Notes: a model not told the origin generated them from the sequence alone. DNA of 64,000 bases from Patescibacteria group bacterium (GCA_020148145.1 JAHCRE010000016.1:164827-228826); one strand, 5' to 3'; counted from the first letter of the stretch, positions 20,368 to 45,960 are shown. A program made the numbers and translations.

Positions 20368-20546
20368 CCCTCCTTTAATATCCTATATTATAGAAAATTA
20401 AATTGCGTTTGTCAATCAACCCCGAGAAAAACTACGAACCAGAATAAATTCGGTTCACGGCTTCGCTCTCGGGGCGGGGGCGGCGGAAATAAAAAAGACG
20501 CATTTCTGCGTCTATAAAAAATAATTAGATAAAATGTCATCGGTGA

Positions 20547-20810
20547 TTATTCTTTGTAAACTCTGTAGCCCTTTCGAGCTCTATGATTAACCTTAAGGCC
20601 AATCGAATCACCAGTCTTAGCCTCTTCTATTTTCTCATGTTCGATTTCCATCGATTCAACTGTTTGGATAAAGTCAGTATCTATCCCTCCGACGATTCGA
20701 ATACTATCTCCCAGCCTTAGAGTATCAACAAGTTCAAGCACTGCTACTCCTATCTTGGAATAATAATGACTAACTGTCCCAATCAATTTTTCTGTTTCGA
20801 TTTCTATCAC
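20547..20810 (-). CDS. Small stand-alone EF-Tu domain-2-like beta-barrel protein
   Basis: 87 aa; GDSIRIVGG...TGDSIGLKV pattern typical of translation-factor domain II barrels. Confidence 0.45.
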   Translation of the reverse strand: MIEIETEKLIGTVSHYYSKIGVAVLELVDTLRLGDSIRIVGGIDTDFIQTVESMEIEHEKIEEAKTGDSIGLKVNHRARKGYRVYKE

Positions 20811-20941
20811 CTCCTTTTAAAAGAACAATATAGAAATATTAGCAAAATTAAAAAACTTGTCAAGTCAACCAAAACCCCGAGAAAAACACTCGGGGCGGAA
20901 ATAAAAAAAAGAGGCAAAAATAAGAGAGTTGCCTCTATTGT

Positions 20942-21220
20942 CTATTTCCTAAATTTTAAAGAACTACGCAACTTTCTTATTATTGATAGAAATCTCCAGT
21001 ATCTCCAATGATAGGAATATTCCCATTTCTGGATAGCCACTATTCCAAGATAGCAACCGAGAGCCCCAATTAGAGAAATTGCTGTTATCATCGCTGCAAC
21101 ATTAGCCCATAAAGCCAACGAGAGAAGAGACAAGACAAGCCATCCTATCGCACAGCACACTGCAAAGAAAATCAGATTAAGCATATTCTTAAAAAGAGCT
21201 TCTTCCCATGTATCACTCAT
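20942..21220 (-). CDS. Small membrane protein (2-3 TM)
   Basis: Hydrophobic 92-aa ORF preceded by a TTGACA-17-TATCTT promoter-like sequence and an AGGGATGAA Shine-Dalgarno-like sequence. Confidence 0.45.
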   Translation of the reverse strand: MSDTWEEALFKNMLNLIFFAVCCAIGWLVLSLLSLALWANVAAMITAISLIGALGCYLGIVAIQKWEYSYHWRYWRFLSIIRKLRSSLKFRK

Positions 21221-21241
21221 TTCTATTCATCCCTCTTTCTT

Positions 21242-21270
21242 CAAGATAATAAAAAATTAATGCCTTGTCA
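21242..21270 (-). promoter_or_regulatory. Sigma-70-like promoter (TTGACA ... TATCTT) for the 20942..21220 gene
   Basis: Reverse complement reads gatTTGACAaggcattaattttttatTATCTTgaagaaagagggatgaatagaaATG. Confidence 0.45.
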
Positions 21271-21362
21271 AATCGGCGGCTCCCCAAGAAGGGGCGGGCG
21301 GAAATAAAAAAGAGACAAAAAATGGGGATTTGCCTCTTTAAGTCACAGGCTAGCCGTGGTTC

Positions 21363-21677
21363 TCAGTAGTATTCGCCAGTAAAGGGGTCTTTCCGTCCAA
21401 ATCTGTGGTGCCAAACACCGCGACGCCAGATCTCTTGTAACTCTTCGCAATCCTCTTTTTCCTCTAACGAGATATCATGAATAACATGGTTTCTCTCGCT
21501 TGCTACCTCTATTTTTCCATTCCTATCTATGTGTACAATGTCTCCCTTCGTGCTAATGACAACTAGTTTTATTTCACCTTTCTCTTGTAATAACTTCTTC
21601 ACGTTTTCGACTTGCCTCTGAGCCTTAGCACGGAACCCTGCATATTTATCTTCTTTTTCTTCTCTAAGTTCTTTCAC
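21363..21677 (-). CDS. Hypothetical protein
   Basis: 104-aa ORF, charged and coiled-coil-like. Confidence 0.4.
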   Translation of the reverse strand: MKELREEKEDKYAGFRAKAQRQVENVKKLLQEKGEIKLVVISTKGDIVHIDRNGKIEVASERNHVIHDISLEEKEDCEELQEIWRRGVWHHRFGRKDPFTGEYY

Positions 21678-22121
21678 CTCCTTTTATTTTTAAAGAACGG
21701 TTTGGAGGTTCAAGGAATTGCACCTTGATTAATCTCAACTTGAGACCTCCACAAAATAAAAAACTAGCTCCTCAGTCTGAGGATCTAGTTTGATTTTATT
21801 ATTGATTAAGTTAGTATTCTAATTTTTCTAAATACAAACTCCCCAGACTAAGTTCTGCTAGTAAATTAACTGACATCATTTGTAAATTGTCTGAGAAGTT
21901 TCTCATATTACTAATTTTAGATGTTATATCAGAGAAGGTACCTTGTCAAGTCAAATCCAAAGAAAAACTCTCGGGGGCTGGCGGCTCCCCAGGGTGGACG
22001 TAATCAGAACTTGGTTTTGGGAGAGGTTTCCAACTCCAGAGATAGTAAAATTACCTACTACCACCCCATTTAAATAGGCGCCCAAACTACTCCTTTAAAA
22101 CTTTGTGTTTTTTAACAATTT

Positions 22122-22886: not shown

Positions 22887-23092
22887 ATTATGAAATTATA
22901 TCACAAAACAAAACCCCAAGAAAAACTCTCGGGCGGCGGGCTTGCCATCCGAAGCCTTGGCGAAGGATGGCTCCCCTAGCTGGACGCGCCCGTCCGTAGT
23001 TCTCTTGTCCATCGAAGTTTTAACGAAGGTGGAAGCGAAGGAGGGATATTAGAATCTATTTAGTAGAAATATTTACTATTTAAGAATTACAT

Positions 23093-23698
23093 TTACTGCC
23101 ACTTTACTAAAAATTCATGATATTCGTCTCCTCGAAAAGGACATTTTGTTTCTTCACAGGTTGCCTTACTTCTAACTATCATCTCAACTACACTAGAGAA
23201 ATACCCAATAAGAGCTTGACAATGAAGTGGATGAAGACGGAAATTTTTAAGCCTTAGAATTGCATATCTTTTTTCTTTATTGAGTTCTATTGTTTTAAGA
23301 TCACCAACCGTAAAATGTCTTTTCCACATTTTTGGAGTTGCTTTAGCCATTCTCTCGAGCGAAACGAAAAACTTCATAAAAACTCTGATAATTAGAGAAG
23401 AAATTTTAGCTTCAAACCTCCCCATTTCTCTAAACTTTTCTTCGTTGAAATTAAAAAGTCTCTTAATGACTAAAAGGGTAATAGCCATTAATCCTATTGG
23501 GTAAAGATCCCTTGACCTTATTTCTTGGTATTTTATTGGATAACCAAGTTTTGCCATCGTATCTTCTAATTTCTTTAATCCTTCTTTTCCTTTTTCTTTG
23601 AGAACGAATTCTAATGTAGTTTTGAGTGGCTCCTCTTTTACTTCTCCTTCAATTTTCATTAATTCGTTAAATTCTTCTTTTGAAATTATTTGCTCCAT
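23093..23698 (-). CDS. Hypothetical protein (possible V4R/ligand-binding-like fold, weak)
   Basis: 201 aa; the C-terminal HCQALIGYFSSVVEMIV...CEETKCPFRGDEYHEF pattern is loosely like V4R domains. Confidence 0.35.
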   Translation of the reverse strand: MEQIISKEEFNELMKIEGEVKEEPLKTTLEFVLKEKGKEGLKKLEDTMAKLGYPIKYQEIRSRDLYPIGLMAITLLVIKRLFNFNEEKFREMGRFEAKISSLIIRVFMKFFVSLERMAKATPKMWKRHFTVGDLKTIELNKEKRYAILRLKNFRLHPLHCQALIGYFSSVVEMIVRSKATCEETKCPFRGDEYHEFLVKWQ

Positions 23699-23913
23699 AA
23701 TTTTTCTTTATTAAAATACTATATTTTTATTTTAGCAAAGGTTTCCCCAAAAAACAAAAACCCCGAGACTACAACCCACCCAAGGACGGGGCGTTTCGCT
23801 CTGCGAAAGCGCCTCGCGTCCCGACCACATCCTCCCGCCTTCGGCGGGCCCCTAAACTCTCGGGCGGACGGCGGAAATAAAAAAGAGGGTAGATTTTTTA
23901 ATACCACCCTTTT

Positions 23914-24150
23914 TCATTTTTCAGCTGGGCTAATTGCCAAGCTTACCTCTTGTTCGACAATCTGCGTTTTGAAATTCCACATTATTCGCTTGTTGCCTTT
24001 TTTAAAGACCCAAAGGTCTTCTCCATAGACAAAGACATATTCCCAGCCTTGCTCTTCTAGCTCTTTCCTGCTGATTTTCTTGCCTTTGGTCTTATTTCCC
24101 TCCTTTTTTCTTTGTAATCTTATCTTACCATACTGTAAAAAAAAGATCAA
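23914..24150 (-). CDS. Hypothetical small protein
   Basis: 78-aa ORF, weak support. Confidence 0.25.
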   Translation of the reverse strand: MIFFLQYGKIRLQRKKEGNKTKGKKISRKELEEQGWEYVFVYGEDLWVFKKGNKRIMWNFKTQIVEQEVSLAISPAEK

Positions 24151-26790: not shown

Positions 26791-27243
26791 TTATTTTAAA
26801 ATAGTGATTTCTTCTGCCTTAAATTCTTGCTTTCCCTTAATATTTTCTGAAGAAAGAACATAAAGTAAGTCCCCTACCTTAATGTCTTCAAATTTAGCTT
26901 CCAAAATGTCTTCAAATTCACCTTCCAAAGGATAACCCCATTGGGGCTCTTCAGGAAGATTAATTTTTGTATTTTCATCAACAGTAATCTTTAAAATCTC
27001 AGTCTCGGTTTCTCCAGTTTTCGGATCGATTTTCCCTTCTAAAACATTTGCTTTGAGGTGAATTATATTGCCCTCTATTTCCACTACCTCGCCAGCTCTC
27101 ATAAAAATTTCTTCTGGAATTTTAACTAGTCTCTCGATTTGGCTCTTTTCTTTTTCAACGCCTAAAAAATATCCAATTCCTCCACTAATTGCTAACCCAA
27201 AACAGAAGAAAATAATTATTAGAAAGATTTTTTTTGTTTCCAT
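26791..27243 (-). CDS. Hypothetical membrane-anchored protein
   Basis: Start trimmed to METKKIFLIIIFFCFGLAISGG. The longer track ORF runs into a GC-rich intergenic repeat. Confidence 0.4.
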   Translation of the reverse strand: METKKIFLIIIFFCFGLAISGGIGYFLGVEKEKSQIERLVKIPEEIFMRAGEVVEIEGNIIHLKANVLEGKIDPKTGETETEILKITVDENTKINLPEEPQWGYPLEGEFEDILEAKFEDIKVGDLLYVLSSENIKGKQEFKAEEITILK

Positions 27244-27516
27244 AAATTTTAGAGTTAAAAATCGAGGTCTTCGACCTTTTATTCTATTATACCTTAATTG
27301 CCCGCAAAACGAAAACCCCAAGACTACAACCCACCCACCACATCCTCCCGCCTTCGGCGGGCCCCTAAACTCTCGGGGGGTCCCGCAAGATGACTGCGTC
27401 ATCGCGGGACTCACTCAAAACGGCTTGCCACGAGATGGCGAAGCCATTTTTCGTGGCTCCCCCCCAACTGCACGTCATTCAAACCTGTTTAACAAAATAA
27501 AAGCTATTTCAATTAT

Positions 27517-28518
27517 TTATTTTGAAGAAGCATCAATACACTGTTCTCCATCAAAGCATTTGCCCTCGCCACAGTCACAAACTTTAACTTGATGACTATT
27601 ATCTGGTGAACAACCACAAGGACCAACAAGACAGAGGTTTGGATAATCACTAGTTGCTTTACAGCATAGAGAAGTTGTTATCTCACCTCCAGAATTAACA
27701 CATGCCTCTCCTGCTCTATCTTTTACTTTTCCAGCCTCTTCATCAAAACATTCAATAACCATATCTACTGGGAAATTATAAGGTTCAATAGCTGAACAAA
27801 GAATCGCCCCTTGACCATCATGTACTAACTCCCAATCACCATCTACTTTTGCTGCTAAAAACATGCCTGAATTTTCAGGGCCACCTGGTTGAAATACAAC
27901 TCCACCCCTGAGATGACCTTCTGTCTCTTGATTAATATTTATGGTTATTTCTGCCATTTTCTTATTGTACTTTTCAGCAAAAAGTTTTTGTATTAATTCC
28001 TCTTTAGAAACTAAAGGGTCAATTGAACTATCTCCCTTTCCACATTTTACTTCTACATCTTTCTTATCAGTTTCTAGTGGAATCCACTGGCCGGTTGCTT
28101 CTTTGTATCCACTAACGCCCCCTGCAACAGTACAGACAATATGATCTTTTTTATATCCTGTTAATCCTGAAATAGTGCCTGAAGCTATATTGTAAAGGTC
28201 TACACTAAAACCTCTATCTATGAAAAAAGGTCCAACACTATCATACTGCTCACTTGATATGCTCTCAGCCTCAAATCCTTTTCCCTCTACAGTCACTTCT
28301 TCTATCTCTTCATATTTTTTAACATTCCATTTAATTTCAATTGCTTGTATCTCTGAAAAAATTATCCCAGTCTCTTGCTTGAGGTCCTCCAGAAGATTTA
28401 AAATCTCATCTTCGGGTGGTAAGGGTGCTGGCGGGAGACCTAAATTCTGATAAAGCCAATAGCCTGTTCCCACAACAATTATTATTGCAATAACGATTGT
28501 AATTATTGTCTTGGGCAT
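27517..28518 (-). CDS. Hypothetical TM-anchored extracytoplasmic protein with a Cys-rich C-terminus
   Basis: N-terminal TM; C-terminal CCKATSDYPNLCLVGPCGCSPDNSHQVKVCDCGEGKCFDGEQC. Confidence 0.45.
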   Translation of the reverse strand: MPKTIITIVIAIIIVVGTGYWLYQNLGLPPAPLPPEDEILNLLEDLKQETGIIFSEIQAIEIKWNVKKYEEIEEVTVEGKGFEAESISSEQYDSVGPFFIDRGFSVDLYNIASGTISGLTGYKKDHIVCTVAGGVSGYKEATGQWIPLETDKKDVEVKCGKGDSSIDPLVSKEELIQKLFAEKYNKKMAEITININQETEGHLRGGVVFQPGGPENSGMFLAAKVDGDWELVHDGQGAILCSAIEPYNFPVDMVIECFDEEAGKVKDRAGEACVNSGGEITTSLCCKATSDYPNLCLVGPCGCSPDNSHQVKVCDCGEGKCFDGEQCIDASSK

Positions 28519-28561
28519 ATAATTTTATTATTAAACTTACATTCCGACCTTTCGTTTCTAT

Positions 28562-28760
28562 TCTACCAAAAAACCGCCTTCTTGGCAATTAGAGACGGTG
28601 GGTCTACCCGAGAAAAACTCTTGGGCAGCGGCTCCGGCGGTAGGACTCGAACCCCTCTCGGTCGCCCTAGCGCTATAGGCGTCTCGGTCTCCAGAACGAG
28701 CTCACTGGCTCCGAGGGTGGGACGTAATCAGAACTTGGTTTTGGGAGAGATTTCCTTGTT
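28562..28760. repeat. GC-rich mosaic intergenic element containing a tRNA-3'-end-like ggctccggcggtaggactcgaaccc module and a gacgtaatcagaacttggttttgggagag module
   Basis: The 35-nt gacgtaatcagaacttggttttgggagag is shared exactly with 22001-22040; the tRNA-like module is shared with 35060 and 41680. Confidence 0.6.
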
Positions 28761-28860: not shown

Positions 28861-30210
28861 CTACTCTCCCGGTACGGTTTTATCGAAAAATAGTACGCCG
28901 CCACCACCTGTCCCACCGGCCACCATATAGTTTCCATCTGAAGAAATACAAGCGTGTCCCATACTCATAGGGGTAGGAATGGGAAAATCCTCGTGGGACA
29001 TTAGCAAAGTTGAATATTCCCACAAAGGAACACTGCTGTCTCTCTGAAAAAAATAACAACCAAACTCACCTACTGCCGCTATATGCTTACCATCAGCAGA
29101 AATAGCAACGGAACTAACGGTAGCTCCAGTGTTAGAATCAGAGGCATAACTCCAGAGAGGAACACTACTGTCTTTCTTGAACAAATAAACGGTGCTGCTG
29201 TTAGCCTCATCTCCGTATCTGAAAGCAGATACTGCTAAATATTTGCCATCTGAAGATAGGGATACAGAACAGTAATCACATTCTAATGGATAAGTCCAAA
29301 GCGGCGTGCCAGAATCTTTGCTAAAAAAGTACAACTTATTTGAGCTTCCTGCTGCTACATAATTACCGTCTGAAGATATGGAAATGGAATAGAGGTCAAA
29401 ATTTTTCGCTCCACCCGTTTTATAGCTCCATAAAGGCGCAGCAATTAGACCAACGGGTCTCTGACCTATGATTTCGGCATCTCTTTCGAACAAATATATC
29501 CTTTGCTGATCCGCCAAACTCGGACAAACTGCTGCCACATAATTGCCATCTGAGGATATTGATGTCTCGACTCGAGACAGGTTAAAATCAGCAAGTTCAC
29601 GGCTCCATAATATCTGGCCATCTTTTGAAACCAAAAAAAGCTCACCATAATTCTCCATACCTACTGCTATGTAATCTCCATCAGCCGAAATGGAAACAGA
29701 ACGAAGGGGAACCCACTCATCTTCCTCGAGGTCAAAAGGACGAAGGCCCTTAATCCATAAAGGAGTAGGATTATCTTTCTGAAAGAAGTAAAGCTTGCCA
29801 TCGGTAACAGCAAAAGTGCCCACTGCGATATAATTGCCATCCGGAGAAATGGAGACTGATTGGACTTCAAGGTCATCAACTTGATAATTCCACAGAGGGA
29901 TAGAACTGTCTTTTTCGAAGAAAAGAACATTGTCTGGCCCATAGGCGTCGGAAGCTCCAGCTACTATATAATTTCCATCTAAAGACATTGAGATACCACC
30001 CTCATTCAGGCCCCCATAGGCAATCCAATCCTCTGTAAAATACCACCACAACGGCTCTTTTTCAGTCTTTTTCTCAGCCTCTTCTTCAACTTTTCCGTTC
30101 GATGGAACCGCGCCTTCTTCTTCTACTTTTTTCTCCCCACATCCAGCACCTACCAAAACTAAGACAACTAAAAGTAAAAACAGAACAAAAAATTTTAACT
30201 TGTTTTTCAT
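28861..30210 (-). CDS. Lipoprotein with beta-propeller repeats (WD40-like/PD40-like blades)
   Basis: Lipobox LVGAGC, then at least 8 repeats of about 45 aa containing S(I/V)SIS(A/S)DGNY(I/V)A(A/V)G and LW(N/S)Y. Confidence 0.6.
   Translation of the reverse strand: MKNKLKFFVLFLLLVVLVLVGAGCGEKKVEEEGAVPSNGKVEEEAEKKTEKEPLWWYFTEDWIAYGGLNEGGISMSLDGNYIVAGASDAYGPDNVLFFEKDSSIPLWNYQVDDLEVQSVSISPDGNYIAVGTFAVTDGKLYFFQKDNPTPLWIKGLRPFDLEEDEWVPLRSVSISADGDYIAVGMENYGELFLVSKDGQILWSRELADFNLSRVETSISSDGNYVAAVCPSLADQQRIYLFERDAEIIGQRPVGLIAAPLWSYKTGGAKNFDLYSISISSDGNYVAAGSSNKLYFFSKDSGTPLWTYPLECDYCSVSLSSDGKYLAVSAFRYGDEANSSTVYLFKKDSSVPLWSYASDSNTGATVSSVAISADGKHIAAVGEFGCYFFQRDSSVPLWEYSTLLMSHEDFPIPTPMSMGHACISSDGNYMVAGGTGGGGVLFFDKTVPGE
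30074..30196. repeat. About 123-bp exact direct repeat, copy 1, encoding the shared lipoprotein signal peptide and linker
   Basis: Identical to 30791-30913; encodes FFVLFLLLVVLVLVGAGCGEKKVEEEGAVPSNGKVEEEAE in both genes. Confidence 0.85.
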
Positions 30211-30250: not shown

Positions 30251-30925
30251 TTAAAAAAATGGTATTTCCATTATCTGGACACCGGCTGGTAATTCAAATA
30301 TGCTATTAGAGATATCACCAAAATCTATATTCTTTATCTCTACCACAGTTGTGCCTTTAGCTGTAGTCCCTTCTGTCCTAATAGGAATTCCGTACCTTGT
30401 CCATATCCACATTTTTACCTCTTCTGTCTCAGTACTGTATTCAACAACCAGACAGGTTTTCCCATCCAGGACTTCAGTGCCAACAGTCACCGGATTATAA
30501 TCCATCACCGACTCAGATTGTTCGGTCGGAGATTCTCCAGCCGTTCCCCTGGCTTTACTCCAATCCATTTTCATAGCTATATTCTGAGCTGGAACATAGA
30601 GATACGCCAACTGCTCTCCCGCATCTAGTAGGTAGACTCCAGTATATCCTTCAAAAGTTCCCTCTACTCTCATATTTGTTCCTTTATACCATACCTTTGT
30701 TGTTATTGCTGCTTGGTCAGGAGCAGTTACTACCACATCATACTTAAGGGAGACAACATCTTTCGCCTTGTCCAAAATATCAGTTAATGATTCAGCCTCT
30801 TCTTCAACTTTTCCGTTCGATGGAACCGCGCCTTCTTCTTCTACTTTTTTCTCCCCACATCCAGCACCTACCAAAACTAAGACAACTAAAAGTAAAAACA
30901 GAACAAAAAATGCTATTTTGCGCAT
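30251..30925 (-). CDS. Lipoprotein, LolA-like/DUF4367-like fold
   Basis: Same lipoprotein leader as the upstream gene, then a beta-rich domain of about 180 aa. Confidence 0.5.
   Translation of the reverse strand: MRKIAFFVLFLLLVVLVLVGAGCGEKKVEEEGAVPSNGKVEEEAESLTDILDKAKDVVSLKYDVVVTAPDQAAITTKVWYKGTNMRVEGTFEGYTGVYLLDAGEQLAYLYVPAQNIAMKMDWSKARGTAGESPTEQSESVMDYNPVTVGTEVLDGKTCLVVEYSTETEEVKMWIWTRYGIPIRTEGTTAKGTTVVEIKNIDFGDISNSIFELPAGVQIMEIPFF
30791..30913. repeat. About 123-bp exact direct repeat, copy 2 (lipoprotein leader cassette)
   Basis: See copy 1. Confidence 0.85.
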
Positions 30926-31655: not shown

Positions 31656-32032
31656 ATGATTCCCCCAATAATCATTAAATCAGCGATATTAAAAATAGAA
31701 ATAGGCAGAAAGAAAACTTTAATCCAGTCAATCACATAGCCAAAATAAATTCTGTCAAAAAGATTGCTCAAGCCACCCAAAATAATCAAAGAAAACCCGG
31801 TTATTAAAAGAAAATCCTTTTTCTGCCAACTCCTGAAAAACAAAAAAAGAAGCAGTAATGTTACTGCTCCGATTAAAAAATAAAGTAAACTCGAATTTAG
31901 AGGAATAAAATACAATTTTGGATTTTTAAACAATAGCTCTGAATCCAAAGCTAACCATTTGGTCAATCTATCCAGAATTATTAAACCCAAAGCAAGAAAT
32001 ACTAAAAATCTTGCTCTATTTAGGTATTTCAT
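31622..32032 (-). CDS. lspA: Lipoprotein signal peptidase (signal peptidase II)
   Basis: LDRLTKWLAL...NLFDRIYFGYVIDWIKV...FNIADLMI matches the LspA conserved D/N/FNxAD boxes; overlaps lgt by 34 nt. Confidence 0.75.
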   Translation of the reverse strand: MKYLNRARFLVFLALGLIILDRLTKWLALDSELLFKNPKLYFIPLNSSLLYFLIGAVTLLLLFLFFRSWQKKDFLLITGFSLIILGGLSNLFDRIYFGYVIDWIKVFFLPISIFNIADLMIIGGIICLIFRLAKSR

Positions 32033-32042
32033 CTTCAGGCAT

Positions 32043-33407
32043 TTACTCGCCTTCAGGCGGTTTCTCTTCTAGTAATTGTTTACAAGCTGGTTCCTGAGGA
32101 TTTTGAGTGCAATATTGTTTGCATTCCTCAGGACTAGTGCATTTCCCTTCTAATTCTGGAGGTATTACCATTTCTGGAGGCTTTCCTTCTGGAGGTTTAT
32201 ATTCGCCTTCAGGCGGTTTCTCTTCTAGTAATTGTTTACAAGCTGGTTCCTGAGGATTTTGAGTGCAATATTGTTTGCATTCCTCAGGGCTAGTGCATTT
32301 CCCTTCTAATTCTGGAGGTATTACCATTTCTGGAGGCTTTCCTTCTGGAGGCATGCCCTCTGGAGGTAGTCCCATCTCACCTTCTGAAGGCTTTGGCATA
32401 TATTTTTCAAAACAATTCTTTATTTTCTCACCAACCTCAGGACTAGGCATAAAGGTACCAGTTTGAATTTTCTCCAAAACTTCTTCTCCTACGGTTGACT
32501 TTATACATTCTAAAACTTCTGGTGGCGCTTGCTTTAATCCCTCCTGTAATTGCTGTATGCCTTCTTTCGTTTTCTGAATTTCTTCCTCAGGAATTAAATC
32601 GTGCTCCTTGGCAAAATTAAAACAAACTTCTTGATTAGCCGGGTTGTTGCAAAAAGCCTCACATTCTTCTTTACTCTGACAACCACCTGGTCCTTGGCCA
32701 CCGGTTTTTAAAAACATTTCTTTCTCCTCTGGCGTCATTAATCCAGCTTTAGAGGCAAAATCAGCACATTCTTGAAAATGAATCTTTTGAGCACAGTAAG
32801 CCTCGCATTCCTCTTTAGTCTGACAGCCGCCGGGACTTTCTCCTTTTGCCATTAAAGACACTGTTTTCTTTCCCCGGCTGCACTCTGCTGAAGATAGTAT
32901 TCCTATCTTACAAGCATAGGAGAAGCATTCTCCCATATGATCCGGCTGTGAGCAGTAGGCATCACACTTTTTTTTGGTTCTACAGTCTCCCGGAAAAGGA
33001 ATTCCAGCCAGCATAGCCTTTCTTACCAGCCTCGCTTCTGCTGCTTCGAATGGAGGTATAAGTCCGGCTTTCTCAGCAAAATCTATACATTCTTCTATTT
33101 TGGTCGGCTCTTCGCAATAAGCCTCACATTGAGTCGGGTTTGAGCATCCGCCGGGCGGCACTGCCCCCTCAGCCAAGGCTTTCATCATTTTTTTAGCTTC
33201 TGCTAATTCTTCCGGCGACAATAAGTTGTGGGCTTCAGCAAAAGATACGCACTCTTCAATGTTTTCCCAATTATCACAATAAGCCTTACATTCTTCTTCA
33301 TTCTGACAATTTCCCAATTCTTTGACCGGAAAACTAATTTGAGCAAAAACAAAAACTCCTGCTAATAGTCCGAGAATAAAAATAACTAATAAAAATGTTT
33401 TTTGCAT
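32043..33407 (-). CDS. Secreted Cys-rich repeat protein (CxxxEECxAYC modules) with a C-terminal 52-aa tandem duplication
   Basis: Signal peptide; about 8 modules of roughly 45 aa with 4 conserved Cys; the last 52 aa are duplicated exactly. Confidence 0.5.
   Translation of the reverse strand: MQKTFLLVIFILGLLAGVFVFAQISFPVKELGNCQNEEECKAYCDNWENIEECVSFAEAHNLLSPEELAEAKKMMKALAEGAVPPGGCSNPTQCEAYCEEPTKIEECIDFAEKAGLIPPFEAAEARLVRKAMLAGIPFPGDCRTKKKCDAYCSQPDHMGECFSYACKIGILSSAECSRGKKTVSLMAKGESPGGCQTKEECEAYCAQKIHFQECADFASKAGLMTPEEKEMFLKTGGQGPGGCQSKEECEAFCNNPANQEVCFNFAKEHDLIPEEEIQKTKEGIQQLQEGLKQAPPEVLECIKSTVGEEVLEKIQTGTFMPSPEVGEKIKNCFEKYMPKPSEGEMGLPPEGMPPEGKPPEMVIPPELEGKCTSPEECKQYCTQNPQEPACKQLLEEKPPEGEYKPPEGKPPEMVIPPELEGKCTSPEECKQYCTQNPQEPACKQLLEEKPPEGE
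32048..32350. repeat. Tandem direct repeat (2 x about 156 bp) within a CDS
   Basis: cgccttcaggcggtttctcttctagtaattgtttacaagctgg... is repeated with 1-2 mismatches. Confidence 0.85.
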
Positions 33408-33728: not shown

Positions 33729-34919
33729 TTAAGGTAGTAAGTCAGCAATTATTGCGCTAGAAATCCCAGTGCTAAAGGGCCCACAATCAGAAGCAAAATA
33801 CACTCTCCACCCTTCTTCTATTTCGACCACACAAGGATCGGCGGTACCTACCTCCCTTCCTTCTTCATCAATGTATTTTCCAAAAAGAAAAGTTATGTTT
33901 GAAAAACTTAGGCCATCGGCTGAATCGGCGCTGTAAATCCCCTCCATCCCCTCTTCATCCATTTCTTGGCTTCCTGCCAAAAAATAAAGCCGGAAACTAC
34001 CATCAGAAAGTTTTACTATATCTGAAGTACCAATCATATTAGCAAACATGCCATAAAATAATGGTTTTGTACCATCTATTCTGATTCCTGGTTCTATTCC
34101 CCAGCTCAATCCGTCAGATGATATTGCGCTTTTTATTCGACACACGGGCGGAGTAGGAGGAGCAGGTTCATCACAATCCTGCAAATACATTCTATATCTC
34201 CCATCATCTAGCCTAATTACAGTAGGACCCACAAGATCAGTTACTAGCCGAAGACCCTCGACTTGAAAATTGAGTCCATCATTAGAAATAGCGGACTGTA
34301 TGCCACCTGAATTATAATACATTCGAAAGCGACCATCCGGCAACTCAATTACTGAAGGCATAGCATAGTTGAATCCTTCAGGTAGGCGAGTTCCTGGCTC
34401 AGAAGTCCAATTTAGTCCATCCGAGGAAATAGCACTAACGATATTTATGTTTTCAGGATAGGTTCGTGGGTCTAAACCGTAATACATCCTATATCTACCA
34501 TCAGGTAATTTTACAACTTCCGCATCGCAGTAACCACCAGGGATCACCACTCCCTCTATTGTCCAGACAGAAGGGAGTTTTTCTTTTTCTACTTCTACAA
34601 CTTCAACGCATTTATTTTCTTTACACTCGTAACCTGAAGGACAACTCTTACTCTTATATTGCTCATCAAAACAACACCCAAAAGGACACTCTAATTTTTC
34701 TTTAGACACTTCTTCTTCAAAAGCTACCTCTTCTTCCTCCTCTTCTTCAGGTAAAACCGCCTGCTCTTCCACTTGCTCTTCCGGAGCTTCTTTTTCCTCC
34801 TCGATTTTTTCTTTTTCAGCTTCGGGGAGGGAAATATTTTTCCAAACAAAAAACCCTCCTATACCGAAACCAATTAAAATTATTAAAGCAATTAAGATTT
34901 TAGTTTTCATCACTTCCAT
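33729..34919 (-). CDS. TM-anchored BNR/Asp-box repeat protein (sialidase-like beta-propeller fold)
   Basis: Repeats SAISSDGLNWTSEPG, SAISNDGLNFQVEG, SAISSDGLSWGIEPG and SADSADGLSF; acidic linker after the TM. The likely true start is the second Met (MKTK), which has a GGAAG Shine-Dalgarno-like sequence. Confidence 0.55.
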   Translation of the reverse strand: MEVMKTKILIALIILIGFGIGGFFVWKNISLPEAEKEKIEEEKEAPEEQVEEQAVLPEEEEEEEVAFEEEVSKEKLECPFGCCFDEQYKSKSCPSGYECKENKCVEVVEVEKEKLPSVWTIEGVVIPGGYCDAEVVKLPDGRYRMYYGLDPRTYPENINIVSAISSDGLNWTSEPGTRLPEGFNYAMPSVIELPDGRFRMYYNSGGIQSAISNDGLNFQVEGLRLVTDLVGPTVIRLDDGRYRMYLQDCDEPAPPTPPVCRIKSAISSDGLSWGIEPGIRIDGTKPLFYGMFANMIGTSDIVKLSDGSFRLYFLAGSQEMDEEGMEGIYSADSADGLSFSNITFLFGKYIDEEGREVGTADPCVVEIEEGWRVYFASDCGPFSTGISSAIIADLLP

Positions 34920-34924
34920 TCTAC

Positions 34925-35130
34925 TAAAAAACCGCCGAAATGGCGATTAATTATGGTAACTCAGCCCCGAACATGGTTCGATATCCTAGCGGGGTATGGG
35001 GATATTTTTTCTCGAACCTTTCAAAAATATGAGGCCTTTCGGTCTCCCGAAAGGTCTCACTAGCCTGCTCCGGGGGCAGGACTCGAACCCCTCTCGGTCG
35101 CCCTGTCAGGATAGGCGTCTCGATCTCTTA
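34925..35130. other. Conserved GC-rich structured leader-like element, copy A (about 130-nt core plus tRNA-3'-end-like module plus ctcggtcgccct module), ending in a terminator hairpin abutting the BNR gene start
   Basis: Alignable with 36783-36945 and 41545-41710. Contains ggttcgat...tctcgaac long-range stems and gcaggactcgaacccc. Confidence 0.7.
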
Positions 35131-36765: not shown

Positions 36766-36782
36766 TTTTCTCTATTTTATCA

Positions 36783-36945
36783 AAAAATCGTCGCGATGAC
36801 GATTTTTTCTTTGTTCGGAAAAGTTCGATTTCCTAGCGGGGTAGGACGATATTGTCTCGAACTTTTTCTGAAAATAAGATGGGGCTCGGTCACTCGAACC
36901 GAGCACTAGCCTGCTCCCCCTATTGGACGCGTTCAGAACTATTGA
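36783..36945. other. Conserved GC-rich structured leader-like element, copy B, immediately upstream of the PHP phosphatase gene
   Basis: See copy A; the terminator-like hairpin cgtcgcgatgacg plus T-run lies 15 nt from the start codon. Confidence 0.7.
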
Positions 36946-37034
36946 TTGGAGAGAAATTAAAAAGAATCTTAGAAAATTAGAGCCTATTTTGGTAGGAATT
37001 TAAATAAAAAAGAGACGCATTTGAACACGCCTCT

Positions 37035-37820: not shown

Positions 37821-37869
37821 CTTTCTACAAGTTGTTAATGCGCTACTTCTAAAATTATATCATTTCATT

Positions 37870-38010
37870 CAAAAAGTCAAGCCCCGAGAAAAACTCTCGG
37901 GGCGGGCGGCTCCCCAGGTCGGTCTGGAACCCAGATTTAAAGGGGAAATTAGGCGATTTTGAGAGTTCCAAATAACGCCCCTCGGTCGGGGCGTTTTTTC
38001 GAAAAATGAG
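37870..38010. repeat. GC-rich mosaic intergenic element (ccccgagaaaaactctcgggg terminator module plus ggtctggaaccc...aggggaaattagg module plus gcccctcggtcggggcgtttttt terminator)
   Basis: Homologous to 38535-38625 and shares modules with the 20.4-24.3 kb and 28.6 kb islands. Confidence 0.6.
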
Positions 38011-38037: not shown

Positions 38038-38451
38038 TTACAAATCTTCTTCAGTAATTACTTTTATTCCATTTTTTTTCAATAAAGCAACTGTCACTCC
38101 ATCCCCCTCAATCAATCTATCGGAAAAAGTCCCGTCATAAATTTTCCCGCATCCGCAAGATGGACTTTTTTGTTTAAGGATTGCTTCTTTTATATTAAGT
38201 AGTCTCGCCAAGTGTAAAACTTGTTCTGCTCCTCTTGTAAAATTCTCGGTGACATCCTTTCCGGATTTCGTTACAACCTTATCTCCTTTCTGTTCTGAGG
38301 GCTCTCTTGGAGTTGGTAAACCACCCAATTGCTCTGGACAAATAGGAATTAAGGTTTCTTTCTTTGATAATTCAATAACTTTATCGTTTGGCTTACTCTT
38401 GCTATCATATCGACACTCTATCCCTAATAAACAAGCACTACATAGTTTCAT
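38038..38451 (-). CDS. DUF523 family protein (TudS-like putative thiouracil desulfurase / Fe-S protein)
   Basis: MKLCSACLLGIECRYDS...SPSCGCGKIYDG are the conserved Cys motifs of DUF523. The start was trimmed; the upstream terminator-like module overlaps the longer track ORF. Confidence 0.6.
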   Translation of the reverse strand: MKLCSACLLGIECRYDSKSKPNDKVIELSKKETLIPICPEQLGGLPTPREPSEQKGDKVVTKSGKDVTENFTRGAEQVLHLARLLNIKEAILKQKSPSCGCGKIYDGTFSDRLIEGDGVTVALLKKNGIKVITEEDL

Positions 38452-38459
38452 ATCTTTTA

Positions 38460-38700
38460 TTCTACCAAAAAACCGCCTCTGAGGCGATTTTTGCATGTGG
38501 CCACTCGGTCGCCCTGACGCCTAGGGCCCCTCGGTCTCATGCTCCCCTAGTTGGTCTCGAACCTACGGTTTAAGGGGAAAATTAGGGCTTTTTGAGGGTG
38601 TCCCACAATGCGTCTCGGTCGGGGTGTTTTAAAGCTAAAATGAGACAAATGAGACACTACTTTAGGGTATTTTTAGTGTCTCGTTTTGAATGATTTTCTC
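38460..38700. repeat. GC-rich mosaic intergenic element (tctaccaaaaaaccgcc module plus ctcggtcgccct-N-ctcggtctc module plus ggtctcgaacc...aaggggaaaattagg module)
   Basis: Its modules recur at 28562, 28650, 35090 and 37920. Confidence 0.6.
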
Positions 38701-41464: not shown

Positions 41465-41544
41465 TTAATTAGTCTTTTTATGGATAAGATTTATCTACTT
41501 TCAAAATAACCTCTTTTTTGAGAAAGTTCAAGATAAAAAACAAA

Positions 41545-41710
41545 AAACGCTTTTCCCTTAGTGGACGAAAGCGATTTTTTTGTTCGTGAAAGTTCGATGT
41601 CCAGTCAGGGTACGGCGATTGTTTCTCGAATTTTTTCCAAAATTAAGTGGGAATCGGTCTCTCGAACCGAGCTCAAGCTGGCTCCGGCGGCAGGACTCGA
41701 ACCCAAACAA
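41545..41710. other. Conserved GC-rich structured leader-like element, copy C, upstream of the AT-rich three-gene operon
   Basis: See copies A and B; ends in gctccggcggcaggactcgaaccc. Confidence 0.7.
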
Positions 41711-41718
41711 CAAAAATC

Positions 41719-42441: not shown

Positions 42442-45197
42442 ACCTGAGCTTTTTCTAATTTTCTTTGTTTTGAGATTTTAACTAAGTCACTAGGTGTTCT
42501 AAAAACAATCTTTTCCTCCTCTACGTCAACAATAACTTTCTCTCCTTTTTTAACTAAACCTGAGACAATTTTTAAAGAAAGGGGATCTAAAATTAATCTC
42601 TGAATGACTCTTTTTAAAGGTCTGGCTCCCAAATTTGGGTCAAAACCTTTTTTGGCTAAAAATTCTTTAGCTGAATTTTCAAATTTAATTTTGATTTTTT
42701 TATTTTCTAATCTTTTTCTAACTTTTTCTAACTCTAACTCAACAATTTTTTTAATTTCCGATTTACCAAGATAATTAAAGATAATAATTTCATCAACCCT
42801 ATTTAAAAATTCTGGCCTAAAATTATCCTTTAGGGCTTCCATTACTTTTTCCTTTAAAGAAAGTTTTGCCTCTTCCTCTTTTTCTCCCAAAAATCCAAGA
42901 GATCCCATCTTAGCAATGTGTTCAGATCCAATATTTGAAGTCATAATCAAAATTGCATTTTTAAAAGAGGCTATCCTACCCTTGGCATCAGTTAACCTAC
43001 CATCCTCGAAAATCTGAAGTAAAATATTAAAAACTTCGGGATGGGCTTTTTCAATCTCATCGAGTAAGATTACGCTATAAGGTCTTCTTCGAATTTTTTC
43101 AGTTAGTTGCCCTCCCTCTTCATAACCAATATAGCCGGGAGGCGATCCAATCATTTTAGAAACTGTATGCTTTTCCATATATTCTGACATATCTAATCTA
43201 ACCAAGGCATTTTCATCATTGAATAAAAATTCAGCTAAAGCCCTAGCTGTCTCAGTTTTTCCTACTCCGGTTGGCCCCAAAAACATGAATGAACCCAGAG
43301 GCCTTTTTTCTTCAGAGATACCAACTCTTGATCTTCGAATAGCATTGGAAATTGCTGAAATTGCTTCTCTCTGGCCTATAACTCTTTTTGAAAGAATCTC
43401 TTCCATTTTTTTCAATTTTTTAACTTCCTCTTCTAAAAGCCGGGTTATTGGAATTCCTGTCCAACGGGAGACAACCTGAGCAACATCTTCTTCTAATACT
43501 TCTTCTTTTAGAATTGGCCGAGTTTTTTGGAATCTGGCTAATTTTTTCTCGGTTGTTTTAAGTTCTTTTAAAAGACGGGGTATTTCTCCATATTTTATCT
43601 CGGCCACTTTTTGTAAATTAGCTTCCTGACCAGCCTTTTCTGCCTGGTATTTCAACTCCTCAATCTTTTTTTTGAGATTTTTAATTTTGGTAATAATTTC
43701 CTTTTCTGACTTCCATCTGGCTTCGAGGGCCTGGGCTTTTTCTTTTAAATCAGCCAGTTGACGAGAAATTACTCTTAACCTCTTTTGAGAACCCTTTACT
43801 CCTTCTTTTTTAAGGGCCTCTCTTTCAATCTCTAATTTTTGAATTTCCCTTTTTAAATCATCGAGTTGGCTAGGCTCTGACTCAATTTCTAATCTCAAAG
43901 CCGACATAGCTTCATCCATTAAATCAACTGCCTTATCAGGTAAAAATCTATCGGTAATATAACGAGCAGCCAACTCAGCTGCTGCCACCAAGGCTGAATC
44001 TCTAATTTTTACCCCGTGATGAAGTTCGTATTTTTCTTTAATTCCGCGCAAAATAGCAATTGTATCCTCGATTGTCGGTTCTTGAACATAAATTGGCTGA
44101 AATCTTCTCTCTAGAGCGGGATCTCTTTCAATATATTTTTGATATTCTTTCAAAGTTGTTGCTCCAATTGCCTTTAATTCTCCTCTAGCTAAAGCTGGTT
44201 TCAATAAATTTGAGGCATCAATTGCTCCTTCAGCTGCTCCTGCCCCTACTAAAGTATGGAGTTCATCGATAAATACAATATATTTACCAGCTGCCCGATT
44301 GATTTCTTTAAGCAGGGCTTTAACTCTGTTTTCAAATTCTCCTCGATATTTTGTCCCCGCTACTAGGGCTCCCAAATCTAAACCAATAATTTCTTTTTCT
44401 TTTATGCTTTCGGGAACATCTCCTCTGACGATTCTCTGGGCCAGACCTTCAACAATAGCTGTTTTACCAACCCCAGCCTCACCAATCAAAACAGGATTAT
44501 TTTTTGTCCTGCGAGATAAGACCTGCATCAATCTTCTAATTTCATTTTCCCGACCAATAACCGGATCTAATTTCCCCTGCCTGGCTAGAGAAGTCAAATT
44601 GCGGGCATATTTTTCAATTACCTGATATTTTGATTCAGGATGAGGGTCAGTAATCCTCTGGCCTCCCCGGATTTTAGCCAAAGTTTTTAAGACAGTCTCG
44701 TAATTTAATTTACCAAATTCCAAAGTGGACGGGCCTCCACTAGGTCGTAAAAAGGTGGCTTTATCTAAAATCTCTTTTGCCTTAGTTTCAATATTAAGAA
44801 GAGCTAAAAATAAATGCTCAACTGAAATAAACTCATCACCCATTTTCATTGATTCTTTTCTTGCTCTTTCCAAGACTCTGGCCATATCCTGGGTTAAATA
44901 AAACTGACCAAGAACCTGAGGAGAGATTATTGCCGGAATTTTATCTAAAGCTAACTTTGTTTTCCGCTTCAGACTTTCAATATCTGCCCCCAATTTCTCC
45001 AACATAGTTAAAACCACGCTTCCTTCCTGAGAAAGTAAGGCGTAAAGAAGATGCAAGGCATCAATTTGTTGCTGTCCTTTTTCCTGAGCAATCCTTTGGG
45101 CCTGAAGTATTGCTCCTTGAGCTTTGTGAGTAAAATTACCGCCTGTAATCATATTATTTGTCAATTTCTTTTTACTATAAGATTTTAAAAAAAACAA
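42438..45197 (-). CDS. clpB: ATP-dependent chaperone ClpB (two AAA+ modules plus middle coiled-coil)
   Basis: Walker A GEAGVGKT and GPTGVGKT, the long coiled-coil M-domain, and the C-terminal D2 small domain. The true start is probably the internal MITGG. Confidence 0.9.
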   Translation of the reverse strand: MFFLKSYSKKKLTNNMITGGNFTHKAQGAILQAQRIAQEKGQQQIDALHLLYALLSQEGSVVLTMLEKLGADIESLKRKTKLALDKIPAIISPQVLGQFYLTQDMARVLERARKESMKMGDEFISVEHLFLALLNIETKAKEILDKATFLRPSGGPSTLEFGKLNYETVLKTLAKIRGGQRITDPHPESKYQVIEKYARNLTSLARQGKLDPVIGRENEIRRLMQVLSRRTKNNPVLIGEAGVGKTAIVEGLAQRIVRGDVPESIKEKEIIGLDLGALVAGTKYRGEFENRVKALLKEINRAAGKYIVFIDELHTLVGAGAAEGAIDASNLLKPALARGELKAIGATTLKEYQKYIERDPALERRFQPIYVQEPTIEDTIAILRGIKEKYELHHGVKIRDSALVAAAELAARYITDRFLPDKAVDLMDEAMSALRLEIESEPSQLDDLKREIQKLEIEREALKKEGVKGSQKRLRVISRQLADLKEKAQALEARWKSEKEIITKIKNLKKKIEELKYQAEKAGQEANLQKVAEIKYGEIPRLLKELKTTEKKLARFQKTRPILKEEVLEEDVAQVVSRWTGIPITRLLEEEVKKLKKMEEILSKRVIGQREAISAISNAIRRSRVGISEEKRPLGSFMFLGPTGVGKTETARALAEFLFNDENALVRLDMSEYMEKHTVSKMIGSPPGYIGYEEGGQLTEKIRRRPYSVILLDEIEKAHPEVFNILLQIFEDGRLTDAKGRIASFKNAILIMTSNIGSEHIAKMGSLGFLGEKEEEAKLSLKEKVMEALKDNFRPEFLNRVDEIIIFNYLGKSEIKKIVELELEKVRKRLENKKIKIKFENSAKEFLAKKGFDPNLGARPLKRVIQRLILDPLSLKIVSGLVKKGEKVIVDVEEEKIVFRTPSDLVKISKQRKLEKAQV

Positions 45198-45466
45198 GTG
45201 TCAAGCTAAATAAAAAAGGAGAGGAAGGAAGAAATCTTTCAATAGATTTTTCCTCACTCTCCATGAAGGATCGAGCTACTTCGGGCTTTTGCTCGAAGTT
45301 AAGCCACGATTTAACTTAAGATCAGAAAAAAGGGGAGATGGAGGGAAAAGGGAGGTAAGAGTTCTTGTTCTGCCCTTACTTTCCTTATCTTTAATTTTTG
45401 TAAAGGAGGTACAATTACCTCTTTAGGAGACTCAGTCTCGACCTTGCCTTTTTCCCTGTTTTCCTC

Positions 45467-45664
45467 TTACTTGCCGAAGGTTTCGTCAAGAAGCTCTTCA
45501 ATGATGATTCTTCCGAATTCCTTCAACTCATCAAGAGAAATTCCGGTAGCTTTGGCTACATTACCCAGTTCTCTCTTAAAGTCCGGGCCCAGTCGGAGAT
45601 TTGAGCGAGCCATCCGGTACTTCAGGAGAATTAAGGCAATCTCGCCTTTTCTTTTCTCATCCAA
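45467..45664 (-). CDS. Small hypothetical protein with a strong promoter and Shine-Dalgarno-like sequence (possible TTG start)
   Basis: The reverse complement shows TTGACA-17-TATACT, then GGAGG 8 nt before TTG. The encoded sequence is ...RSNLRLGPDFKRELGNVAKATGISLDELKEFGRIIIEELLDETFGK. Confidence 0.35.
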   Translation of the reverse strand: MDEKRKGEIALILLKYRMARSNLRLGPDFKRELGNVAKATGISLDELKEFGRIIIEELLDETFGK

Positions 45665-45689
45665 GAAATTCACCTCCTTTTTTCTTTCT

Positions 45690-45722
45690 ATCTTAAGTAT
45701 AGCAAACAAATTTATCTTTGTC
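45690..45722 (-). promoter_or_regulatory. Sigma-70 consensus-like promoter TTGACA-17-TATACT
   Basis: Reverse complement reads cgtacTTGACAaagataaatttgtttgcTATACTtaag. Confidence 0.55.
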
Positions 45723-45779
45723 AAGTACGACAAAAAAAACCGAGGCTTCACCTCGGAAAAATCCTTAAGCGAGAAAAGT

Positions 45780-45960
45780 AATTTTTAGGATAAAATTAAG
45801 TGAGGTAGCTGCTGACAAGGACGCCTCGGAGGCCAAGCGGCCATGGTTCTGCCGAAGGCAGAGAGCGAGGCCAAGAGACGAGCAGCAGTCGTCTCGGTGG
45901 GACGACTGACTGCGTGCCTTGGAAGCAGTCTACCGAACGATGTTCTATTCGCTTCTCTCA
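45780..45960. ncRNA. GC-rich (about 60%) structured island, candidate small ncRNA of unknown identity
   Basis: Multiple hairpins (agacgagcagcagtcgtct; ctgccgaaggcag), no ORF support, and weak partial resemblance to SRP RNA domain IV (ggaagcagtc). Confidence 0.25.

Follow-up and report, generated by a model that had tools for sequence, protein, structure and literature searches.

The window analyzed in this study is a 64,000-nt stretch of a Patescibacteria group bacterium (GCA_020148145.1 JAHCRE010000016.1:164827-228826), whose intergenic regions carry GC-rich repeats with pieces similar to the 3′ end of a tRNA. These intergenic islands are composite gene-boundary modules of three parts on the coding (minus) strand, and not one mobile element. 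The first part is a tRNA-3′-end-like element in one of two forms: the terminal 24 nt of tRNA-Asn, kept literally (three copies), or a diverged core, AAACAGGTTCTAACATCGTCC-N7-GGAGC, that retains the GGTTC start of the T-loop and an A72-G73-C74-like end. The second part, not present in every module, consists of conserved hairpins, namely A, B, C, and a trailer hairpin of the tRNA-Gln type. The third part is a GC-rich hairpin with a T-run, fused to the predicted promoter of the next gene. Hairpins A, B, and C and the stems of two cassette types (I and II) were found in different combinations in at least 12 intergenic regions, forming an imperfect palindromic mosaic like that of repetitive extragenic palindromic sequences (REP) and bacterial interspersed mosaic elements (BIME).

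The chances seem to us about evenly balanced that these islands are transcription-unit boundary modules, which descended from units of a tRNA-Asn or tRNA-Gln gene, its 3′ trailer, a terminator and the next promoter, lost the tRNA body, and kept the core as a signal in the transcript. Two parts of this reading, the probable tRNA origin of the modules and their predicted terminator and promoter roles, are well supported by sequence comparison. For the core, our best guess is an RNA 3′-end or processing signal, or a protein-binding signal, at the boundaries of transcription units.

The GC content of the module islands varied from 51 to 62%, compared with 35.7% for the window, which was higher than the 30% background assumed in a first-pass annotation of this stretch. 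The minus strand carries nearly all window genes, and the repeats were therefore read as the reverse complement. For the diagnostic motifs GGGGAGC, GACCGAG, GTTCGAG, GAGAGTTTTTCT, and ATTTCCGCC, all intergenic copies were on the minus strand and outside open reading frames (ORFs).

All six recurrent modules listed by the first-pass annotation were recovered at or near the positions it had assigned (Table 1), and a degenerate pattern of the core element had 4 matches vs. 0.00 expected from 100 shuffles. An exact 35-mer described as common to the 22.0 and 28.7 kb regions was not found; the longest exact match there was 30 nt. The family was present in the proposed interval 20400-45960, but it reached further, to 16708-17395, and its modules were widespread in related genomes. 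As anticipated, spurious ORFs crossed the repeats at 23690-24028 (+) and 27068-27592 (+) and in the 5′ extension of 26791-27414.

Relationship to tRNA-Asn and tRNA-Gln Genes

Related loci (designated by L numbers) were picked via the type I cassette pattern in species-representative genomes. At least 120 stretches were obtained, almost all from metagenome-assembled genomes (MAGs) of Patescibacteria, Parcubacteria, or Nealsonbacteria. This set comprised ~0.96 Mb on more than 100 MAG contigs, in which the genes were crude ORF calls. The host genome was covered by the 64-kb window and a further 10 kb.

The modules appeared to be derived from tRNA-Asn/Gln genes plus their trailers, because the 3′ end and the downstream blocks were common to both. 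ARAGORN detected 31 tRNAs in the cassette-selected loci, 18 of which were tRNA-Asn or tRNA-Gln, and in these loci both ended in A-G-C. Upstream of the type I cassette, there was very often either a real tRNA 3′ end or the element AAACAGGTTCTAACATCGTCC-N7-GGAGC. The tRNA-Asn of L044 ended in GGGTTCGAATCCTACCGCCGGAGC; hairpins A and B and the cassette came next, with an arrangement identical and a sequence almost identical to those of window 35176-34920, where another hairpin took the place of the first two-thirds of the tRNA. The same hairpins and cassette followed a tRNA-Gln in L114, and a second, nearly identical copy of the trailer in that locus had GGTTCTAACATCGTCC...CCCGCAGC in place of the tRNA-Gln. 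In addition, the trailer hairpin ATCCTTCGCCAAGGCTWCGGAT-GGCAAGCC was located after a real tRNA-Gln in L022 and after the pseudo-end GGGGAGCC at window 22940-22975. The 23-mer common to the three window copies, GGTTCGAGTCCTRCCSCCGGAGC, was the genuine 3′ end of tRNA-Asn(GTT) in 101 of 120 exact metagenome matches; the exceptions similar to the candidate phyla radiation (CPR) had the same prefix as the window (hairpin C plus GGGCGACCGAGAGG). These results agreed with the tRNA derivation proposed in the first-pass annotation.

No complete tRNA accompanied the modules. ARAGORN called none in the 64 kb, Rfam gave no tRNA match in 20000-46500 even at E ≤ 10, and the D-arm pattern of tRNA-Asn had no match in the window with up to 3 mismatches. 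Hairpin C or unrelated sequence, and no 5′ acceptor strand, was found upstream of the 24-nt fragments. Real, unusual, or split tRNAs were thus rejected given the negative ARAGORN and Rfam results and the missing 5′ half, as expected from the earlier remark that the T-arm-like module does not fold as a real tRNA. No Rfam family reached its gathering score in the 64 kb, and only chance-level matches to small nucleolar and small RNAs (sRNAs) appeared at E ≤ 10. Known RNA families of which the modules were reminiscent (guanidine-III, preQ1, T-box, and ribozymes) therefore had no Rfam support and were discarded.

Predicted Terminator and Promoter Cassettes

The type I cassette (tattctaccaaaaaaccgcc, module 5) read ATCGCC-loop-GGCGG TTTTTT GG TAGAAT on the coding strand, so that a small hairpin and T-run passed straight into an extended −10 box (TGgTAGAAT), with the ATG 6–8 nt later. 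The type II cassette, which holds the commonest of the GC-rich hairpins, comprised CCCGAGAG-GTTTT-TCTCGGGG, a run of T's, TTGACA-17-TATAAT, and a Shine-Dalgarno sequence. Among 148 type I cassettes of the window and its relatives, 47% had their first ATG 4–10 nt past the −10 box, with a peak at 6–8 nt, vs. 8% of random positions. This consensus and spacing would imply leaderless mRNAs for type I. In the window, module 5 had been placed immediately upstream of two start codons, which was true of the ATG at 38451 (6 nt) but not of that at 28518 (40 nt).

The consensus scan gave 31 terminator-like sites vs. 11.7 ± 3.2 expected, and 39 vs. 14.1 ± 3.5 expected, with the module hairpins included. 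Among them were sites at 20896, 22933, 24181, 28590, 34948, and 37903, and promoter-like sites were found directly downstream (20415-20387, matching at 12/12 positions, 20863, 21271, 21949, 28588, and 34946). Compensatory changes were seen at nine of the 29 pairs that make up hairpins A and B and the terminator, and the resulting covariation score was reached by none of 500 shuffles. The complete A plus B composite was confined to a few genomes. The GC-rich blocks at 23.8 and 27.3 kb were type II stems in which the loop was replaced by nested GC-rich hairpins. A cloverleaf-like fold of hairpin A, hairpin C, and the T-arm fragment was also considered and rejected, as RNAalifold gave a different hairpin with no covariation among 6 sequences. 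The genes downstream of the cassettes were mutually unrelated, and many encoded small secreted or membrane proteins. The first-pass suggestion of a regulatory or structured RNA therefore held in part: several modules corresponded to terminator hairpins or promoter boxes and to hairpins with compensatory changes, whereas the tRNA-like core had no convincing structure of its own.

Three further patterns were observed near the cassettes. An AAAGGTC(G) motif was located 5–15 nt past the −10 box and ~30–40 nt ahead of the ATG (window 28541-28549 and 27266-27277; e.g., also L025, L038, L057, L071, L118, and L121). It occurred in ~15 of the 148 type I cassette genes, in the non-leaderless subset, and may be a 5′ untranslated region element. 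A third stereotyped promoter block, CTTGAACTTTCTCAAAAAAGAGGTTATTTTGAAAGTAGATA, was found ahead of unrelated genes at window 41490-41530 and 19570-19620 and at L004 13530-13567. Finally, unrelated proteins shared a near-identical signal-anchor N-terminus (MKTKILIILIILIGLGIGGFFVWKNIS), in window 33729-34919 and after type I cassettes in L033, L047, L098, and L111. Conservation thus extends beyond the cassette to cover the first ~80 nt of the coding region, and recombination between genes could use this block as a substrate.

The tRNA-End-Like Core Element across the Clade

A profile search of the 0.96 Mb of related loci (E < 0.01) gave 126 core matches in 57 loci, on one strand only in each locus and with up to 8 copies in 8 kb (L065). 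Within the loci that had matches, themselves cassette-selected, 71 of 239 co-oriented tandem intergenic regions (~30%) contained the element. Its median position was ~50 nt past the upstream stop codon and ~100 nt ahead of the next start codon. About 42% of the copies had a T-run at a fairly fixed distance upstream (within 50 nt), and an A-rich spacer followed by a hairpin and T-run was located 3′ of the element. The identity of the 21-nt core was 0.83 between loci and 0.87 within loci, compared with 0.62 and 0.80, respectively, for the 3′ variable spacer. This pattern suggested constraint on the core together with homogenization within genomes.

The window subtypes at 36.9, 22.0, 37.9, and 38.5 kb close a CUCYCC:GGGGAG stem around a conserved loop (z about 0). 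A minihelix-type acceptor stem was rejected for the main element, since the search for a 5′ partner was not above shuffles and only these CTCTCC...GGGGAG subtypes fold in this way. No −35/−10 signal was conserved upstream of the element, where the information content was ~0 up to position −10. An extracytoplasmic function (ECF), sigma-54, or ordinary promoter within the core was also rejected, as no upstream boxes were conserved.

One subtype ending in GGGGAGC, the TTGAACTGGGGAGC type (L004 18560-18650, L007, L019, L086, L101 ~1900, and L119), adjoined a conserved block of ~120 nt. The opposite strand of this block opens a small ORF (MLKEKLVEI...), possibly a small, divergently oriented gene that shares this intergenic region.

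Variable Island

The module-bearing region at ~14.8–41.7 kb (14800-41720) was a variable island of small accessory genes. Its ClpB-Trypsin_2 and helix-turn-helix (HTH)-sigma flanks were 7 kb apart in L003, a complete Nealsonbacteria genome (13430-20470), vs. 27.5 kb in the window, and none of the island genes had a homologue in the syntenic loci. L004 had an independent 7.7-kb island of small genes with elements at the same junction (13449-21197), and L093 had only a type I cassette (6878-6915). Between these relatives, which could be compared at the level of whole islands, gain or loss of islands was observed, and no target-site duplications were seen.

Possible Function and Alternative Explanations

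If the islands are transcription-unit boundary modules, the hairpin and T-run would stop the upstream transcript and insulate the next promoter. The conserved tRNA-like core, located just ahead of the terminator, would be recognized in the transcript and would thereby serve 3′-end definition, processing, or stability. A tRNA-end-recognizing enzyme (RNase Z, for example) or some other protein with sequence-specific binding could be its reader. Recombination or gene conversion would keep the copies alike within a genome. A signal at the RNA level was favored because the element replaces the tRNA end in otherwise identical units, and because the A72-G73-C74-like end is retained and the constraint extends across genera. 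A further step would be a bacterial "tRNA punctuation," in which the mimic of the tRNA-Asn/Gln acceptor end (GGTTC...GGAGC) before the terminator is read by a tRNA-end-recognizing enzyme or a dedicated binding protein, defines or processes the 3′ ends of monocistronic transcripts, and was co-opted from tRNA gene trailers across a large Patescibacteria clade. We consider this full version quite unlikely.

Several observations weighed against the boundary-module reading. The element densities and the Asn/Gln enrichment were inflated because the loci were picked via the cassette pattern, and the promoter, terminator, and leaderless calls were made from consensus matches alone. Of 123 related loci, just 7 contained the type II hairpin sequence. 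In hairpin A, the GACCGAG strand was constant even where its partner changed, which indicated sequence recognition rather than pairing. Pairing of the GGGGAG strand with a 5′ partner was no better than chance (3.84 vs. 3.39 in shuffled controls), and single-sequence folding of the core element gave z about 0. A role at the DNA level would fit better with the upstream T-run in ~42% of copies, because an efficient terminator there would leave the element seldom transcribed from the upstream gene. No locus had the element on both strands, but the sample contained only 7 opposite-strand tandem intergenic regions, so co-orientation with genes and with replication was inseparable.

A competing proposal is that the modules are non-autonomous selfish repeats, similar to REP/BIME or to miniature inverted-repeat transposable elements (MITEs), which multiply, nest within each other with a preference for sites just after terminator T-runs, and are mobilized in trans by an enzyme from elsewhere, any terminator or promoter effects being secondary. 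Mosaic structure and nesting would be expected in that case: the CCCGAGAG...CTCGGGG stem enclosed GC-rich inserts at 20418-20473, 23778-23864, and 27312-27377, and L002 had different, genome-specific inserts at the same stem position. The homogenized spacer, the dense copies in L065, the fairly fixed distance from the upstream T-run/ATTTCC, and the concentration of elements in variable islands pointed in the same direction. However, the repeat search of the window gave no terminal inverted repeats, only direct repeat families, and the modules kept a single orientation and always the same arrangement with respect to the terminator and promoter. A Y1/RAYT-like gene was found in only 2 of ~240 loci and not in the window, no transposase or integrase was linked to the modules, and the 0.96 Mb contained no tyrosine-recombinase motif. 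In addition, the core was about as conserved between genera as within a genome, which is unexpected for decaying selfish copies. The selfish-repeat explanation, and with it the MITE/SINE-like family (SINE, short interspersed nuclear element) offered by the first-pass annotation, thus seems unlikely. Linkage to an integrase or RAYT was also searched for by motif scan and tblastn and was rejected; tblastn with the Y1_Tnp of L003 matched only L003 and L108, not the window.

The tRNA-Asn/Gln-end-like core might otherwise be the target of a site-specific recombinase, with attachment sites bounding gene cassettes and the island being an array of single-gene cassettes. The fragments span from the T-loop to the tRNA 3′ end, a span typical of tRNA attachment (att) sites. 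In the arrays, one element stands behind each of the small co-oriented genes, at a spacing of ~700–850 bp in L065; the arrays form variable islands between conserved flanks, and in the window a tRNA-Asn fragment just past the Trypsin_2 gene marks the start of the island. Between L004 and L086, orthologous genes also retained their promoter but differed in the upstream elements. All of this would suit recombination, yet a motif scan of all frames detected no integrase motif (HxLRH-type) in the 0.96 Mb of element-rich loci. No intact tRNA was found at either end of the window island, and the relatives had no tRNA at that locus. There was no second, inverted core site, the −10 box stayed TAGAAT whatever the core variant, and each "cassette" had its own predicted promoter, unlike integron cassettes. 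We regard attachment sites as improbable, with a slim chance of being correct. An integron-like R″/R′ pairing of GGTTCTAAC with the GTTAGAAT/GGTAGAAT box was rejected separately, as it showed no compensatory variation. Least probable among the explanations considered here is that the islands are independent sRNA genes, or riboswitch-like cis-regulatory leaders in which a regulated terminator controls the downstream gene. Hairpins A and B together with the terminator formed a block that was conserved with compensatory changes, many elements had terminators both before and after them, as would a separate short unit, and the real tRNA versions of the unit had their own promoter just upstream. The element itself had no such conserved −35/−10. 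The predicted promoter of the downstream gene lies after the terminator with leaderless spacing, and the structured part would therefore be outside the downstream mRNA. The downstream genes were non-homologous, no Rfam match was obtained, and about one element per 3–4 intergenic regions would be an implausible density for dedicated sRNAs.

Patescibacteria (CPR) account for a large share of bacterial diversity, and almost none of their gene-expression signals have been characterized experimentally. The modules described here give a readable intergenic "grammar," which consists of two types of terminator-promoter cassette, likely leaderless starts, and a clade-wide tRNA-end-like element. Should the core serve as a signal for processing or binding, bacteria would have a new means of marking transcript ends; a role in recombination or mobility would instead account for the turnover of small accessory-gene islands in reduced genomes. 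The modules are also an annotation hazard in CPR MAGs, as they yield spurious ORFs and can mislead the annotation of tRNA fragments, islands, and repeats.

Features of the Window and Its Host

The host is a Nealsonbacteria-like Patescibacteria MAG. The ClpB of the window was 100% identical to an NCBI protein of "Patescibacteria group bacterium" and shared 80–84% identity with many relatives, including Candidatus Nealsonbacteria. The window sequence was also present on a 203-kb metagenome scaffold. Beyond the window, the same genome was covered by a tightly packed polysaccharide operon, from which the elements were absent, and by a 2.7-kb contig. The features of the window are listed in Table 1.

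Table 1. Gene-boundary modules and their components in the 64-kb window.
Feature	Position	Strand	Remark
Module 1	28657-28691, 35093-35127, 38504-38538
Module 2	28636-28654, 35072-35090, 41686-41704
Module 3	21997-22025, 28721-28749
Module 4	23743-23867 vs. 27298-27380		41-nt exact core plus indel
Module 5	28559-28578, 38458-38477
Module 6	37921-37953, 38553-38586
24-nt tRNA-Asn 3′ fragment GGGTTCGAGTCCTGCCGCCGGAGC (T-loop, T-stem 3′ strand, acceptor 3′ strand, G73, C74)	41681-41704	minus	~15 nt past Trypsin_2 stop; no tRNA called
Hairpin A, tRNA-Asn/Gln trailer hairpin, GACCGA(G) 3′ strand	41647-41677	minus
Hairpin B, TTCGAG...GTACCCTGACTGG...ATCGAAC	41592-41630	minus
Putative terminator hairpin and T-run, then third promoter block (41490-41530)	41535-41580	minus
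CCCCGACCGAG hairpin block, 5′ part of module 6 composite	38596-38632	minus	Homologues in L019, L036
T-loop-type tRNA-end-like element CCCCTTAAACCGTAGGTTCGAGACCAACTAGGGGAGC	38541-38585	minus
Hairpin C between GAGACCGAG and GGGCGACCGAG (module 1)	38504-38538	minus
Type I cassette ATCGCC-loop-GGCGG T6 GG TAGAAT, ATG 6 nt downstream	38459-38488	minus
T-loop-type tRNA-end-like element (...GGGTTCCAGACCGACCTGGGGAGC), preceded by CCCCGACCGAG hairpin (37970-37996)	37909-37955	minus
Type II cassette: CCCCGAGAG-TTTTT-CTCGGGG putative terminator, then TTGACT-N-TATAAT	37850-37903	minus
tRNA-end-like element with closing stem CTCTCC-AATCAATAGTTCTGAACGCGTCCAATAG-GGGGAGC	36913-36950	minus
Hairpin A (36879-36909), hairpin B (36823-36862), type I-like cassette (36774-36803)	36774-36909	minus	131 bits
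Hairpin C with GAGATCGAG and GGGCGACCGAG flanks	35093-35127	minus
24-nt tRNA-Asn 3′ fragment GGGTTCGAGTCCTGCCCCCGGAGC	35067-35090	minus
Hairpin A, hairpin B, type I cassette	34918-35066	minus	173 bits; colinear with region 3′ of real L044 tRNA-Asn
Core tRNA-end-like element AACCAAGTTCTGATTACGTCCCACCCTCGGAGC	28708-28740	minus
Hairpin A-like segment, hairpin C (28657-28691), 24-nt tRNA-Asn fragment (28631-28654)	28631-28705	minus
Type II-like hairpin CCCAAGAGTTTTTCTCGGG, then type I cassette (28560-28589; TTGCCA-17-TAGAAT with TG)	28560-28625	minus
GGGGAGCC and trailer-type hairpins, type II stem (27312-27377) with GC-rich insert for loop, TATAAT	27298-27470	minus
TTTTTTATTTCCGCC and type II stem around longer GC-rich insert	23743-23884	minus	Paralogue of 27298-27380, extra GGACGCGAG hairpin
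Element variant AAATAGATTCTAATATCCCTCC, GGGGAGCC, tRNA-Gln-type trailer hairpin ATCCTTCGCCAAGGCTTCGGAT-GGCAAGCC, putative type II terminator (22910-22933)	22910-23065	minus	94% identity to L022 tRNA-Gln trailer
Core element (21984-22016), putative type II terminator (21957-21975), putative promoter TTGACA-17-TAACAT	21921-22055	minus
Three intergenic regions (20387-20496, 20836-20910, 21243-21311), each with putative terminator, TTTTTTATTTCCGCC, type II hairpin or GGGGAGCC, and TTGACA/−10 promoter	20387-21311	minus
Three core elements (16708-16731, 16780-16808, 17362-17395) beyond the interval of the first-pass annotation	16708-17395	minus

Other repeats were also found in the window. A 175-nt repeat (98% identical, 55–57% GC) was located at 14853-15027 and 16282-16456 and contained GUGUAGGAAAA...GUUAGAAACCGAGAGGUGUCUAAAGAGCGGAGCGA. 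A related GC-rich block at 60400-60630 was upstream of an S21-like ORF (60181-60400), and parts of it were present in L002 (2627-2725 and 12806-12834). The 175-nt repeat had no Rfam match and resembled a further conserved RNA-like element that lacks annotation. The common lipoprotein signal of two adjacent genes formed a 129-nt repeat (97% identical; 30074-30202 and 30792-30920), and a 156-nt tandem duplication (93% identical; 32022-32333) was inside the ORF of a Cys-rich repeat protein (32043-33407). The GC-rich intergenic block directly after the HtrA-like gene (45752-45944; 53% GC with a peak of 61%) falls within the interval of the first-pass annotation; it contained no module of the family and had no match in the fetched loci.

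Free-standing HNH/NUMOD3 and GIY-YIG endonuclease-like genes were present within the polysaccharide-synthesis cluster (window 4393-5910; L125 5482-6927), and the NrdD homologue of the relative L003 contained an intein.

Comparison with Known Systems

The family belongs to the intergenic repeat or punctuation kind and has a tRNA-end-derived, clade-wide core. It lacked the features that define a tRNA, a MITE, a SINE, an integron attC, or any Rfam family, and only loose features of REP/BIME were present. A literature search gave no description of these elements.

MITEs and tRNA-derived SINEs are likewise short, repeated, non-coding, and tRNA-related. However, the two ends of the element (AAACAGG... 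and ...GGAGC) are non-complementary, and its orientation and context are fixed, unlike those of a MITE. No poly(A), A-rich tail, or other mark of retroposition was found in the repeat, and the repeat, which retains no more than the last third (~24 nt) of the tRNA, lacks the internal promoter region of a SINE; bacteria do not use Pol III promoters. The att sites in tRNA genes and the attC arrays of integrons share with the modules a partial tRNA 3′ end from the T-loop on, co-oriented small accessory genes bounded by repeats, and a variable island. They differ from the window, where no integrase, no intact tRNA at the island ends, and no paired inverted cores were found, and where each cassette has its own predicted promoter and terminator.

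Plant mitochondrial t-elements, the tRNA punctuation model of mitochondria, and MALAT1 mascRNA are similar in that a tRNA-like piece ends a non-tRNA transcript unit, at a position where homologous units have a real tRNA. This position suggested recognition by tRNA-end enzymes. However, t-elements and mascRNA fold as cloverleaves or minihelices for RNase P or RNase Z, whereas the modules retain no more than the start of the T-loop and the 3′ strand of the acceptor, with a 5′ partner strand confined to some subtypes, and are known solely as sequence. To our knowledge, tRNA-like processing signals of this kind have no bacterial precedent.

Intrinsic terminators and sigma-70 promoters account for part of each island. 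In modules 5 and 6 and in the CCCGAGAG hairpins, the sequence agrees with the stem plus T-run and with the −35/−10 or extended −10 consensus. They are located ahead of unrelated genes, as are "putative mobile promoters," which are near-identical upstream regions before unrelated genes. The tRNA-like core and hairpins A–C are not explained by these signals. REP/BIME, BOX, and ERIC resemble the modules in their short GC-rich hairpin units, mosaic combination, and intergenic confinement, often at gene 3′ ends. These families are also alike in a consensus homogenized within the genome, and in co-transcription with neighbors and a possible terminator or stabilizer role, both of which are predicted here. 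In contrast to these families, the core of the modules is tRNA-3′-end-derived, non-palindromic, in one orientation, fused to promoters, and conserved across many genera instead of being species-specific, and no RAYT was found in the window, with a Y1/RAYT-like gene in only 2 of ~240 loci. On balance, the closest functional parallel to the modules would be an intergenic mosaic of the REP/BIME type to which ordinary terminators and promoters are joined.

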